Shown here: one piece after another, positions 5,132 through 9,292 of the stretch
Numbering within the stretch: the stretch's first letter is position 1
How the letters are laid out: every line of letters begins with the position of its first letter
Assembly (NCBI RefSeq): GCF_029227855.1
Contig: NZ_CP074356.1
Length of the DNA stretch: 64,000 nt
Source of the DNA: Escherichia coli
GTDB taxonomy: Bacteria; Pseudomonadota; Gammaproteobacteria; Enterobacterales; Enterobacteriaceae
Strand: one strand, 5' to 3'
Notes under the pieces: generated by a model
Databases searched by the model: none
Told to the model about the DNA's origin: nothing
Seen by the model: only the letters and a program-made list of their open reading frames with translations
Translations under genes and position numbers: made by a program

Positions 5132-6556
5132 TTACTCTAAATCTTCACCATTACTGGCAATTACTTTTTTATACCACCAGAACGATTTCTTACGTGTGCG
5201 CGTCAGCGTGCCGTTGCCTACGTCGTCACGGTCTACGTAGACAAAACCGTAGCGTTTGCTCATTTCACCCGTAGAGGCGGAAACTAAATCAATACAGCCC
5301 CATGTGGTGTAGCCCATCAGCGGAATGCCATCTGCAATCGCTTCGCCCATTGCGCGGATATGTTCGCGTAAATAGCTGATGCGATAGTCATCGTTAATCT
5401 CACCATTGGCAGCAAATTCATCTTTTGCGCCGAGGCCGTTTTCCACCAGAAACAGTGGCTTCTGATAACGGTCGTACATCATATTCATGGTGATACGCAG
5501 ACCGAGTGGATCAATACCCCAGCCCCAGTCGCTCACTTGCAGATACGGGTTACGCAGCGATTTCACTACGTTCGCCGCACTGCTATTGTTGGCGTTCATC
5601 TCCGCCGAGGCGCAGCGTGAGGCGTAATAGCTGAAAGAGACAAAATCGACGGTGTTTTTCAGGATCTCATCATCGCCCGGTGCTTTGTCGATGGTTACCC
5701 CTTTTTCGCGGAATACGCGGGCAGAGTAAGCCGGATACGCGCCCCGCGCCTGCACATCGATAAAAAACAGGTTTTCCCGATCTTTCTCCAGCGCCGCCCA
5801 GACATCTTCCGGCTTGCAACTGTAAGGGTAGAAGTTACCGCCCGCCAGCATACAGCCCACCTGATTTTGCGGGTTAACCTCATGGGCGATTTTGGTGGCT
5901 AATGCACTGGCAATCAGTTGGTGATGCGCAGCCTGATATTTCACCTGATCCTGATTTTCGCCTTCTTCAAACACCAGACCCGCGCCGGAGAACGGGCTAT
6001 GCAACATAATGTTGATTTCATTGAAGGTGAGCCAGTATTTCACCAGGCCATCAAATGCTTCAAAGCAGGTCCGGGCGTAGCGGCTGAAAAACTCCACCAG
6101 CTTGCGGTTACGCCAGGAGCCATATTCGGTGACCAGATGCATCGGCACATCGAAGTGGCACAACGTGACCAGCGGTTCGATACCGTACTTTTTACACTCT
6201 TCAAAGACAGAACGGTAAAAAGCAATGCCCTGCTGGTTGGGCGTCAGTTCATCGCCCTGCGGGAAGAGGCGGCTCCAGGCAATTGAGGTACGGAACACTT
6301 TGAATCCCATCTCTGCCATCAGGGCGATATCTTCTTTATAACAATGATAAAAATCCGTCGCCTCATGGCTGGGATAAAACTCGTCATCGCGCAACTGAAA
6401 ACGTTTTTCCAGTCCCAGTTTCACCGCCATTCGATGCTCGCCGTGTGGGATCATATCGACCGTGGTCAGTCCTTTGCCGCCTTCGCGGAACGCACCTTCA
6501 GACTGGTTGGCGGCAAGCGCGCCGCCCCATAAAAAACCTTCTGGAAATACTGACAT
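5132..6556 (-). CDS. ascB: 6-phospho-beta-glucosidase (GH1)
   Basis: Recognised AscB sequence; start chosen at MSVFPE (ORF track extends 4 codons further to 6568). Confidence 0.9.
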
Positions 6557-6564
6557 TTTCATCC

Positions 6565-8022
6565 TCAATTAAGACCTACTTCTTTGGCGACGGTCGGTTG
6601 TACGCTCTGATGCTTTCGCGCCTGGGCAGCCGCTTCCTCAACAGGAATATCCTCAAAGCCGAGCAACAGTGTGAGGATAAACGACAGCACCACCGCCAGC
6701 GCCATGACCGCGAAAACCCAGACGATGCTCATTGGATTCGCCGGATCGAAGAACTGCACGCTGGTAAATAGCCCCGGCGCTGCCATTGAGTGGCTGGCAA
6801 GCCCCGCCATACCGGCAACCGCGCCGCAAATAAAACCGCTGATAAGACTGGCGATAAGCGGACGTTTCAGTCGGATCGCCACGCCATATAACGCCGGTTC
6901 GGAAATCCCCGCCATAATGGCTGATGCCGCCGCAGCCAGCGCCGTCTGACGCAGTTCCGGGTTTTTCGTTTTCCACGCCACTGCCAGTGATGAACCGCCC
7001 AGCGACAGGTTAGCGCCGATCTCTGACGGCATGACCATCCCTTCTTTGCCGGTTTCGGCAATGGTCTGAATGATGGTTGGCGTAAAGACGCGGTGCATCC
7101 CGGTCATTACCAGCAGAGGCCACAGCGCGCCCATAATGGCGACTGAAAGCCAGCCCAGATAACCATGAATGGTGTAAACCAGCGCCGAAATGGCGCTACC
7201 GATCCAGATACCAATCGGGCCAATCAGCAGGATTGCCAGCGGTGCGGCAATCAACACAATCAGCATTGGCTTGAGGAAGTTTTTAGTCACCGCCGGTGTA
7301 ATGCGATCCACCCAGCGTTCGATATATGACAGGCACCAGGTCATCACCAGCGCCGGGATCACCGTGTAGGTGTATTTCACCGCGGTGACCGGGATCAGGG
7401 CAAATTCGACATGTTCACCCTGGGCCGCTTTCGCCATCAGTTCAATAAAGCTCGGATGTACCAGCACACCCGCGATGGCAATCGCCAACGACATATTGGT
7501 TTTAAATTTGATGGCGGCAGATGCCGCGACCATTAGCGGCAGGAAGAAGAAAGCACCGTCACCAATCACATTCAGAATGGTTAAGGTCGGCGATCCTTTT
7601 GTCAGCACGCCGCTCATCTCGAGGATCATCGCCAGCAGTTTGACCATCGATCCACCGATAATCGCCGGGATCAGCGGTGACATGGTGCCGATCAGCGCAT
7701 CGAGGATCCCCGCACCAATGCGACGTAGCGTAAGTTTGGGTTTACCCACGGGCTGTGCGGGCTGCATATCTCCCGGCAGCAGGCTGACGACTTCCTGAAA
7801 GGCTTGTGAAACGGTATTGCCGATAATCACCTGACACTGGTTGTCACTACGTACCACGCCGAGCACGCCGGGGATGGTTTTCAACGTCGGACTGTCGATA
7901 AGCTGGTCATCTTTGATAACAAAGCGCAAACGCGTCATACAGTGCGTGACTGCCGAGATGTTATCAACGCCGCCCAGTGCCGCTATCACCGAGCGTGCCA
8001 GCGCCGCATAATTTTTGGCCAT
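6565..8022 (-). CDS. ascF: PTS arbutin/cellobiose/salicin-specific EIIBC component
   Basis: 485 aa, N-terminal EIIB domain with CMTRLR motif plus polytopic EIIC. Confidence 0.9.
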
Positions 8023-8281
8023 CGGATTTTATCCTGTTATCAGTAGGGTAGATGTAGTTGTTATCAGTCGACGTGACGGAAAAATGCCGATGCTGAAACG
8101 GAATTAGGAAACCGGTTTCACAAAATCATGAATAGTTGTCACTAAATAAGCAAGAGAGTTAATTGTTCATTTTTTATATTTGTGAAACCGGTCACCTGAA
8201 TATTTTTCCCGCCGATTGCGCAAGGACAATCGGCAAACGGTGCAGTACACTGCGTTGATTGCGTGTAAAGGGATGAAAATG

Positions 8282-9292
8282 ATGACGACGATGCTGGAAG
8301 TGGCGAAGCGCGCCGGGGTTTCAAAAGCGACCGTTTCCCGCGTGCTTTCAGGTAATGGCTACGTCAGCCAGGAGACTAAAGATCGCGTGTTTCAGGCGGT
8401 AGAAGAGAGCGGTTACCGTCCAAACTTGCTGGCGCGCAATCTGTCGGCGAAGAGTACTCAGACGCTGGGGCTGGTCGTGACCAACACGCTTTACCACGGC
8501 ATTTATTTTAGTGAATTACTGTTTCATGCCGCGCGAATGGCGGAAGAGAAAGGGCGACAGTTGCTATTGGCAGATGGTAAACATAGCGCCGAAGAAGAGC
8601 GCCAGGCGATTCAGTATCTGCTGGATTTGCGCTGCGACGCCATTATGATTTACCCGCGTTTTTTAAGTGTGGATGAGATCGATGACATCATTGACGCGCA
8701 CAGTCAGCCGATAATGGTGCTTAATCGCCGCCTGCGCAAAAATAGCAGCCATAGCGTCTGGTGCGATCATAAACAGACCAGCTTTAACGCCGTGGCAGAG
8801 TTGATAAACGCCGGGCATCAGGAGATTGCTTTCCTTACCGGCTCGATGGATTCCCCCACCAGCGTTGAACGTCTTGCCGGGTATAAAGACGCGCTGGCGC
8901 AGCATGGTATTGCGCTCAATGAAAAACTTATCGCTAACGGTAAATGGACGCCTGCCAGCGGGGCCGAAGGGGTAGAAATGTTGCTCGAACGTGGGGCTAA
9001 ATTTAGCGCGTTAGTTGCCAGTAACGACGATATGGCGATAGGTGCGATGAAAGCGTTGCACGAGCGCGGCGTAGCGGTGCCAGAGCAGGTGTCAGTTATC
9101 GGATTCGATGATATCGCTATTGCCCCCTACACCGTTCCGGCGCTCTCCAGCGTAAAAATTCCGGTAACTGAGATGATTCAGGAAATTATTGGACGGCTGA
9201 TTTTTATGCTCGATGGTGGGGATTTCTCACCGCCGAAAACCTTCAGCGGAAAACTGATCCGCCGCGGCTCCCTCATTGCTCTTTCGCAATAA
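8282..9292 (+). CDS. ascG: LacI/GalR-family repressor of the asc operon
   Basis: N-terminal HTH (LEVAKRAGVSKATVSRVL); start placed at MTTMLEV, ORF track begins 22 codons upstream. Confidence 0.9.
   Translation: MTTMLEVAKRAGVSKATVSRVLSGNGYVSQETKDRVFQAVEESGYRPNLLARNLSAKSTQTLGLVVTNTLYHGIYFSELLFHAARMAEEKGRQLLLADGKHSAEEERQAIQYLLDLRCDAIMIYPRFLSVDEIDDIIDAHSQPIMVLNRRLRKNSSHSVWCDHKQTSFNAVAELINAGHQEIAFLTGSMDSPTSVERLAGYKDALAQHGIALNEKLIANGKWTPASGAEGVEMLLERGAKFSALVASNDDMAIGAMKALHERGVAVPEQVSVIGFDDIAIAPYTVPALSSVKIPVTEMIQEIIGRLIFMLDGGDFSPPKTFSGKLIRRGSLIALSQ

Follow-up and report, generated by a model that had tools for sequence, protein, structure and literature searches.

The window analyzed here, 64,000 nt of Escherichia coli DNA (contig NZ_CP074356.1 of assembly GCF_029227855.1), carries three intact asc genes at 5132-9292, as established from its open reading frames and from the annotation of a near-identical genome. 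Gene coordinates were taken from the RefSeq annotation of JNEC-KY178 (6 mismatches in 50 kb relative to the window) and from K-12 MG1655, and are summarized in Table 1 together with the other features of the locus. The genes lie between hycI and hydN in the order hycI-(higBA)-ascB-ascF / ascG-hydN-hypF, with ascG divergent; the same order was found in JNEC-KY178 and, save for the higBA toxin-antitoxin pair inserted between hycI and ascB, in K-12, which lacks higBA. In alignments with the K-12 proteins, AscG, AscF, and AscB were free of gaps and internal stops and showed 98-99% identity. The earlier note had assigned this segment to the asc operon and had described ascG, ascF, and ascB as full length; both statements held, the former by synteny, family searches, and protein identity, the latter by the K-12 lengths, the gap-free alignments, and the retained functional motifs. 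The outer limits given there, 5132 and 9292, were likewise exact, while its starts of ascB (6568) and ascG (8216) were upstream TTG codons of the longest open reading frames and had to be replaced by the annotated ATG codons.

Table 1. Features of the asc locus in the window.
Feature	Position	Strand	Description	Basis or comparison
REP-like hairpin	5080-5104	.	GCCCGAT-N11-ATCGGGC, just downstream of ascB
ascB	5132-6556	-	474 aa, intact	JNEC-KY178 annotation; 465/474 identical to K-12 AscB
ascF-ascB junction	6557-6564	-	8 nt, TTGAGGATGAAAATG; ribosome-binding site GAGGA overlaps ascF stop codon
ascF	6565-8022	-	485 aa, intact	481/485 identical to K-12
Equivalent of internal ascB transcription start	6604	-		Transferred from K-12 by homology (PMC4488073)
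ascFB / ascG control region	8023-8281	.	259 nt	K-12 length
AscG operator-like palindrome GGAAACCGGTTTCA	8107-8120	.	Nearer ascF	1 mismatch to consensus TGAAACCGGTTTCA
Candidate ascFB promoter	8125-8153	-	-35 TTGCTT 8153-8148, 17-nt spacer, -10 CATGAT 8130-8125	Hand reading
CRP-box-like TGTGA-N6-TCACC	8181-8196	.	Overlaps TGAAACCGGTCACC	K-12-identical
Second AscG operator-like half-palindrome TGAAACCGGTCACC	8183-8196	.		3 mismatches to consensus; K-12-identical
ascG	8282-9292	+	336 aa, intact, divergent from ascF-ascB	332/336 identical to K-12 AscG

A sequence search found the orthologous locus in thousands of genomes, and chance resemblance was thereby excluded. Comparison with K-12 and other genomes revealed neither an IS element nor a rearrangement at the asc locus of the window. 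Database matches to asc that carried a plasmid label turned out to be chromosome-sized records or a fragment of an assembly, and they are no evidence of mobility.

The encoded proteins were assigned to their families, AscF and AscB with scores well above the respective cut-offs. AscF matched the NCBIfam equivalog NF007311, 'PTS cellobiose/arbutin/salicin transporter subunit IIBC', over residues 1-484 of 485 (1028 bits, cut-off 722), whereas the beta-glucoside PTS IIABC models fell below their cut-offs (TIGR01995, 444 bits). Its only domains were Pfam PTS_EIIB (11-43) and PTS_EIIC (113-396), with no IIA domain, and the IIB phospho-cysteine Cys28 was located in the motif THCMTRLRF, as in a PTS enzyme IIBC of the glucose/beta-glucoside superfamily. 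AscB scored 1088 bits against NF007356, a 6-phospho-beta-glucosidase subfamily (cut-off 623), matched Pfam Glyco_hydro_1 (1.6e-132), and carried the catalytic Glu motifs of GH1 enzymes, TFNEIN (E180, acid/base) and VENG (E372, nucleophile). The LacI/GalR-type architecture of AscG was evident from its LacI HTH (3-48), Peripla_BP_1 (60-308), and Peripla_BP_3 (171-330) domains. AscG has been described as a repressor of ascFB and prpBCDE (PMC6550539) with 13 SELEX sites (PMC4797297); no effector is known (PMC3505978), and the effector column in the former compilation of sites is blank (PMC4797297).

At the ascF-ascB junction, the sequence was the same in five strains. In evolved K-12, ascB expression was raised by a 10-nt duplication at this junction. 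K-12 ascB also has a transcription start of its own within ascF, mapped at ascF nt 1419 (PMC4488073). Whether the corresponding promoter carries over to the window strain is uncertain, since ascF nt 1411, 8 nt upstream of this start, is C in the window and T in K-12. On the 3' side of ascB, the RNA fold of 5056-5131 (minus strand) reached -28.1 kcal/mol (z = -3.15), and the flank bearing the REP-like hairpin was conserved also in genomes without higBA. The hairpin, which has no clear T-run, may mark the transcript end as a possible terminator. An Rfam scan of the whole window placed no RNA family within 4000-9500.

The divergent control region differed from that of K-12 by three bases (8107, 8160, and 8219). 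With TGAAACCGGTTTCA, which we take to be the AscG operator consensus, as reference, two AscG operator-like sites and a CRP-like box were recognized in the ascF-ascG spacer; both this consensus and the overlap with CRP were reportedly described by Ishida and colleagues in 2009. The two operator regions together form a 30-nt imperfect inverted repeat, besides which a repeat search of the locus returned short chance-level repeats only. A further operator-like 14-mer within ascF (7384-7397) was dismissed on account of its five mismatches to the consensus. The hexamers of the candidate ascFB promoter, as read by eye, match the consensus weakly, and a consensus promoter/terminator scan of 4900-9500 gave 2 promoter-like sites against 4.4 in shuffled sequences, none of them in the control region. 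An apparent insertion in the control region of TUM1226, suggested by a partial match to 58 nt of it, was an alignment artefact, its annotated spacer having the normal 259 nt.

The comparison within the species covered 5426 complete E. coli genomes. Uninterrupted ascG was present in 4698 of them (~87%), and the whole asc locus was missing from ~727 (~13%). Disruption of ascG by an IS-associated deletion was confined to about one genome (~1/4699), strain WL164, in which an IS621-associated deletion took both ascB and ascF along with the 5' portion of ascG. Intact ascG is thus the near-universal wild-type state, and its presence says nothing particular about the window strain. In pairwise comparisons among five diverse strains, dN/dS was 0.05-0.13 for ascG, ascF, and ascB, and none of these genes contained a frameshift or stop in the strains compared. 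All three proteins are therefore maintained by selection, which implies that they are expressed under some natural condition.

According to the passages of PMC3505978, PMC4403981, and PMC6550539 that cite Hall & Xu 1992, the K-12 asc operon is cryptic and is activated when ascG is disrupted, in agreement with the earlier note. The silence of K-12 asc is supported for arbutin, salicin, and cellobiose (PMC3505978) and not for cellobionic acid, growth on which required ascB in K-12, BL21, and XL1-Blue backgrounds whose asc genes had been sequenced and were unmutated (PMC4403981). Full silence of K-12 asc is contradicted by this ascB-dependent growth and by the internal ascB start. In addition, ST131 strains, from which asc is absent, under-used cellobiose relative to other ExPEC (PMC3917908), a hint that asc may play a part in certain wild strains whose ascG is intact. 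The further step of the earlier note, from an intact ascG to a silent operon in this strain, therefore stood only in part. The intact repressor, the conserved operator-like sites and CRP box, and the freedom from IS elements support repression of asc in the window strain, as far as the sequence can speak to it; as a general rule the step is too simple, given the near-universal presence of intact ascG, the use of ascB by K-12 on cellobionic acid, the internal ascB start, and the low dN/dS values. Growth on arbutin or salicin as a readout of asc is confounded by bgl, bglA, chb, and other beta-glucoside systems located outside the window.

Taken together, we hold with high confidence that the locus is ascG-ascFB of E. 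coli, orthologous and intact, in its normal place on the chromosome, flanked by the hyc and hydN-hypF hydrogenase genes, with ascFB expected to be repressed as in K-12 and yet probably not inert. It is the standard, well-described E. coli locus in its commonest state, and nothing about it is new. In the working scheme that we propose, for which repression, non-induction, and the internal promoter are borrowed from the K-12 literature, AscF would take up and phosphorylate a beta-glucoside with a IIA domain supplied in trans, and AscB would cleave the phosphorylated product. AscG, presumably as a LacI/GalR-type dimer, would bind both consensus-like sites of the control region, of which one overlaps the CRP box and the other covers the promoter or immediately follows it; from there, it would block both cAMP-CRP activation and RNA polymerase. 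Since none of arbutin, salicin, and cellobiose is known to be an effector of AscG, the ascFB promoter would be expected to stay repressed on these substrates, as in K-12, and loss of ascG would be the route to Asc+ derivatives. Low-level production of ascB from the promoter inside ascF is likely, and its product could be used in cellobionic acid catabolism.

Among the alternatives, the one that deserves most weight, although we favor it less than the reading above, is that asc is not cryptic in nature at all: AscG would answer a natural inducer, such as a phosphorylated cellobionate-type compound or a plant beta-glucoside, and the operon would look silent only on the three laboratory substrates. 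Purifying selection is strong on ascG, ascF, and ascB alike, the transporter included, and uninterrupted asc is retained in most genomes; both are consistent with such an inducer, as are the requirement for ascB on cellobionic acid without any asc mutation (PMC4403981), the recovery of ascG among genes induced in vivo in EHEC (PMC6550539), and the cellobiose phenotype of ST131 (PMC3917908). However, no AscG effector has been found (PMC3505978, PMC4797297), the cellobionic acid study reported neither induction of the ascFB promoter nor a role for ascF (PMC4403981), ascB may come from the internal promoter instead (PMC4488073), and the locus has been lost from about 13% of genomes without obvious penalty. 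A little more doubtful still is the proposal in its specific form, namely, that AscG senses a natural ligand, possibly cellobionate-related or else a beta-glucoside of plant or gut origin, and that ascFB is conditionally expressed in wild-type E. coli including the window strain; such expression would account for both the purifying selection and the ~87% retention.

Quite improbable, by comparison, is a loosening of repression by strain-specific base changes that would render asc leaky or constitutive here although the ascG reading frame is intact. Candidates are the G at the operator-edge position 8107, the T at 8160, and, in AscG, I196V, D329G, P334L, and R336Q. One of these SNPs does affect the better of the two operator palindromes, at its outermost base, and four amino-acid differences separate AscG from its K-12 counterpart. 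Yet K-12 (A at 8107) is off consensus at the same base as the window, and the 58 nt around this palindrome were matched exactly in 2127 of 4533 genomes, or 47% of those bearing asc. The operator-edge variant is thus a common allele, and the idea of a strain-specific derepressing mutation at 8107 was rejected on this ground. Within AscG, the N-terminal 60-residue DNA-binding region is identical to that of K-12, three of the four substitutions fall within the C-terminal 8 residues and outside the Pfam domains, and V196, G329, and L334 recur in other sampled strains. Least credible of all is the notion that the asc genes are decaying relics, intact by chance in a functionless locus heading for loss. 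The deletion of the whole locus in ~727 genomes and the partial deletion in WL164 would fit decay, but dN/dS lay far below 1 in every pairwise comparison, the five strains were free of frameshifts and stops, and all functional motifs were kept.

The wider question, why 'cryptic' sugar operons stay intact, belongs to the species rather than to the window sequence. The low dN/dS and the near-absence of natural ascG disruption fit published hints of a real physiological role of asc, such as cellobionic acid use and the internal ascB promoter. The closest known system is that of K-12 MG1655 itself, whose ascG (b2714), ascF (b2715), and ascB (b2716) share with the window their order, orientation, lengths, 259-nt spacer, operators, CRP box, and hydN/hyc flanks; besides the three control-region SNPs and higBA, the window departs from it by 4 residues in AscG, 4 in AscF, and 9 in AscB. 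Beyond E. coli, Klebsiella, Enterobacter, and Pantoea have adjacent genes for a IIBC and a 6-phospho-beta-glucosidase, to which ascB plus ascF show 78-81% nucleotide identity; at megablast sensitivity, the ascG portion of the query had no match in these records. GalR and GalS are the closest characterized paralogues of AscG and share its LacI-type HTH and periplasmic-binding-protein fold; the best NCBIfam score of AscG against their models, 221 bits over the full length, was far under the equivalog cut-offs of 555-557 bits. Both are induced by galactose, whereas AscG has no known effector (PMC3505978). Finally, the paralogous aryl-beta-glucoside system bglGFB of E. coli likewise combines a PTS beta-glucoside permease with a GH1 phospho-beta-glucosidase, and both systems have been called 'cryptic' in K-12 (PMC4488073). 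They differ in their control and transporters, bgl relying on H-NS silencing, the BglG antiterminator, and a BglF with its own IIA, and asc on a LacI/GalR repressor and an AscF consisting of IIBC only (PMC2646131, PMC4488073).

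The ORF list for 3500-11500 contained three long ORFs at the position of the asc (arbutin/salicin/cellobiose) locus, and annotated ascB, ascF, and ascG were matched in essentially every top record when 5000-9400 was searched by megablast against 5,426 complete E. coli genomes. Base-by-base comparison with the top match in this search, JNEC-KY178, found only 6 differences across the first 50 kb, including one within ascF (6723). According to the RefSeq annotations of JNEC-KY178 and K-12 MG1655, the outer limits given in the earlier note, 5132 and 9292, were exact. The longest-ORF starts of ascB (6568) and ascG (8216) corresponded to upstream TTG codons, the accepted starts being ATG. 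The RNA genes also tabulated are ordinary E. coli features with no relation to asc.

Coordinates of the asc genes, AscG operator-like sites, and RNA genes in the window
Feature	Coordinates	Strand	Details	Source
ascB	5132-6556	-	474 aa	RefSeq annotation of JNEC-KY178 and K-12 MG1655
ascF	6565-8022	-	485 aa	RefSeq annotation of JNEC-KY178 and K-12 MG1655
ascG	8282-9292	+	336 aa	RefSeq annotation of JNEC-KY178 and K-12 MG1655
AscG operator-like site 1	8107-8120		GGAAACCGGTTTCA	Consensus search
AscG operator-like site 2	8183-8196		TGAAACCGGTCACC; same as K-12	Consensus search
tRNA cluster	28841-29606		Expected	Whole-window Rfam scan
MicA sRNA	32384-32455	-		Whole-window Rfam scan
naRNA4	39053-39130	-		Whole-window Rfam scan
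Single tRNA	61503-61575			Whole-window Rfam scan

Comparison with K-12 showed neither gaps nor internal stops in AscG (332/336 identical; I196V, D329G, P334L, and R336Q), AscF (481/485), or AscB (465/474), and these K-12-length proteins bore out the earlier description of all three genes as full length. AscG comprised LacI HTH and periplasmic-binding-protein-like domains, and residues 1-60, its DNA-binding part, were exactly those of K-12. AscF, whose score with the NCBIfam equivalog for cellobiose/arbutin/salicin IIBC was 1028 bits (cut-off 722), carried EIIB and EIIC domains only, with the IIB cysteine at Cys28 in THCMTRLRF; lacking a IIA domain, it would, as is established for PTS permeases of this kind, need IIA supplied in trans for phosphorylation. 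AscB, a GH1 enzyme, scored 1088 bits against the 6-phospho-beta-glucosidase model (cut-off 623), with its acid/base Glu at residue 180 (TFNEIN) and its nucleophile Glu at residue 372 (VENG).

The ascF-ascG spacer had the K-12 length of 259 nt, with three base differences (8107, 8160, and 8219). The AscG consensus reported by Ishida et al. in 2009 is reportedly TGAAACCGGTTTCA, and a search with it found two operator-like sites, the second lying inside a CRP-like TGTGA-N6-TCACC (8181-8196). The SNP at 8107 falls on the first palindrome's outermost base, at which K-12 is also off consensus; since the 58 nt around it were matched exactly in 2127 of 4533 genomes, this variant is a common allele and no private mutation. 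Every asc component was intact, and the cis sites were conserved. Between both AscG sites, we infer only a weak candidate promoter on the minus strand (-35 TTGCTT / -10 CATGAT), which was not reported by the consensus promoter scan; such a promoter would place the CRP site near -70 and the first operator across the transcription start.

Two further symmetric elements were observed. A perfect 8-bp inverted repeat, GCCGATTG-N8-CAATCGGC, at 8211-8234 upstream of ascG, with the K-12 SNP 8219 in its loop, could be a protein site or an ascG-leader hairpin. Directly 3' of the ascG stop, the ascG-hydN spacer contained a 28-nt near-perfect palindrome (ATGTCATCGTCACT/AGTGTCGATGACAT, 9306-9333). In K-12, this spacer is reported to harbor a sigma-54 promoter for hydN-hypF (PMC8743547), for which the palindrome may be an activator-binding site.

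The control region together with ascG was present and uninterrupted in 4698 of 5426 genomes, counting those in which one place accounted for at least 80% of the query; intact ascG is therefore the wild-type state and tells nothing specific to the window strain. In about 727 of the 5426, the whole locus was absent, with ascG, ascF, and ascB all gone and only a higA remnant, a small hypothetical ORF, and hydN left, as in strain 4/4 (2319-3905 of its own locus; window equivalent 5054-9440). Deletion of asc has been tied to ST131, with poorer cellobiose use (PMC3917908). Among the matches listed, ascG was broken in one genome only, that of strain WL164, where an IS621-associated deletion removed ascB and ascF and cut ascG short at its 5' end. 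There, at 3397-4883 of its own locus, a truncated IS621 transposase gene adjoins the 5'-truncated ascG; IS621 is also annotated beside the asc locus in strain W and FWSEC0008, and in the window a REP-like hairpin that follows ascB (5080-5104) could plausibly serve as an IS621 target.

Between hycI and ascB, the window carried a higBA pair (4326-5053, plus strand), absent from K-12 and O157:H7, in which the gene for a HigB-family toxin (Pfam HigB_toxin, 103 aa) overlaps that for a 139-aa HTH antitoxin. Of the 5426 complete E. coli genomes, 1091 covered at least 80% of the whole hycI-ascB spacer (4160-5131), and roughly 2000 others kept the antitoxin part alone; such uneven coverage marks it as a variable spot.

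In five aligned strains (the window, K-12, O157:H7, B2-like FDAARGOS_1301, and LB19b), all three frames were open and of equal length, and Nei-Gojobori dN/dS values were 0.08-0.13 for ascG, 0.09-0.14 for ascF, and 0.05-0.09 for ascB. Purifying selection on the three genes is clear. A never-expressed locus would not give such values, and neutral decay of asc is contradicted by them. An in-frame block of LB19b ascB (multi-strain alignment columns about 1890-2660) was far more diverged than the remaining locus (dS 0.45-0.54 vs 0.10-0.18 between other strains), which suggests import by recombination from a more distant lineage of Escherichia, giving a mosaic ascB.

E. coli MG1655, BL21(DE3), XL1-Blue, and an isobutanol production strain, whose sequenced asc bore no mutation, grow on cellobionic acid, and ascB deletion abolishes this growth; the authors concluded that cellobionic acid is a substrate for which ascB cannot be called cryptic (PMC4403981). 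A separate ascB transcription start was mapped inside ascF, at ascF nt 1419, and deleting the asc region, ascG included, raised the activity of a promoter-probe clone (PMC4488073). By homology, this K-12 start falls at 6604 in the window. Eight nucleotides upstream, at ascF nt 1411 (6612), K-12 has T (Tyr471), but C (His471) stands there in the window and in three of the four strains compared with it; transfer of the internal promoter to the window strain is therefore uncertain, and it may be a K-12-specific allele. AscG also represses prpBCDE (PMC6550539), and 13 genomic SELEX sites are reported for it, with no effector listed (PMC4797297).

The best-supported reading, in which repression itself is carried over from K-12, is that AscG dimers would occupy both operators and block cAMP-CRP and RNA polymerase at the ascFB promoter, which, with no inducer among arbutin, salicin, and cellobiose, would stay off; loss of ascG would yield Asc+ derivatives, and AscB would cleave the phospho-beta-glucoside. 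With common alleles and an unchanged AscG DNA-binding domain, loosening of repression by SNPs specific to the window strain is unlikely. A hypothetical natural inducer is plausible and would fit both the purifying selection and the growth on cellobionic acid.

By analogy with K-12, AscG repression would thus uphold the silence predicted earlier from the intact ascG as far as the ascFB promoter on the classical substrates is concerned, but ascB-dependent growth on cellobionic acid, the internal ascB start, and purifying selection argue against complete silence. Low-level expression of ascB is probable, and asc likely has a natural role. The locus is an already known one, here in its commonest form, with no departure from K-12 at the asc coordinates that suggests new biology.
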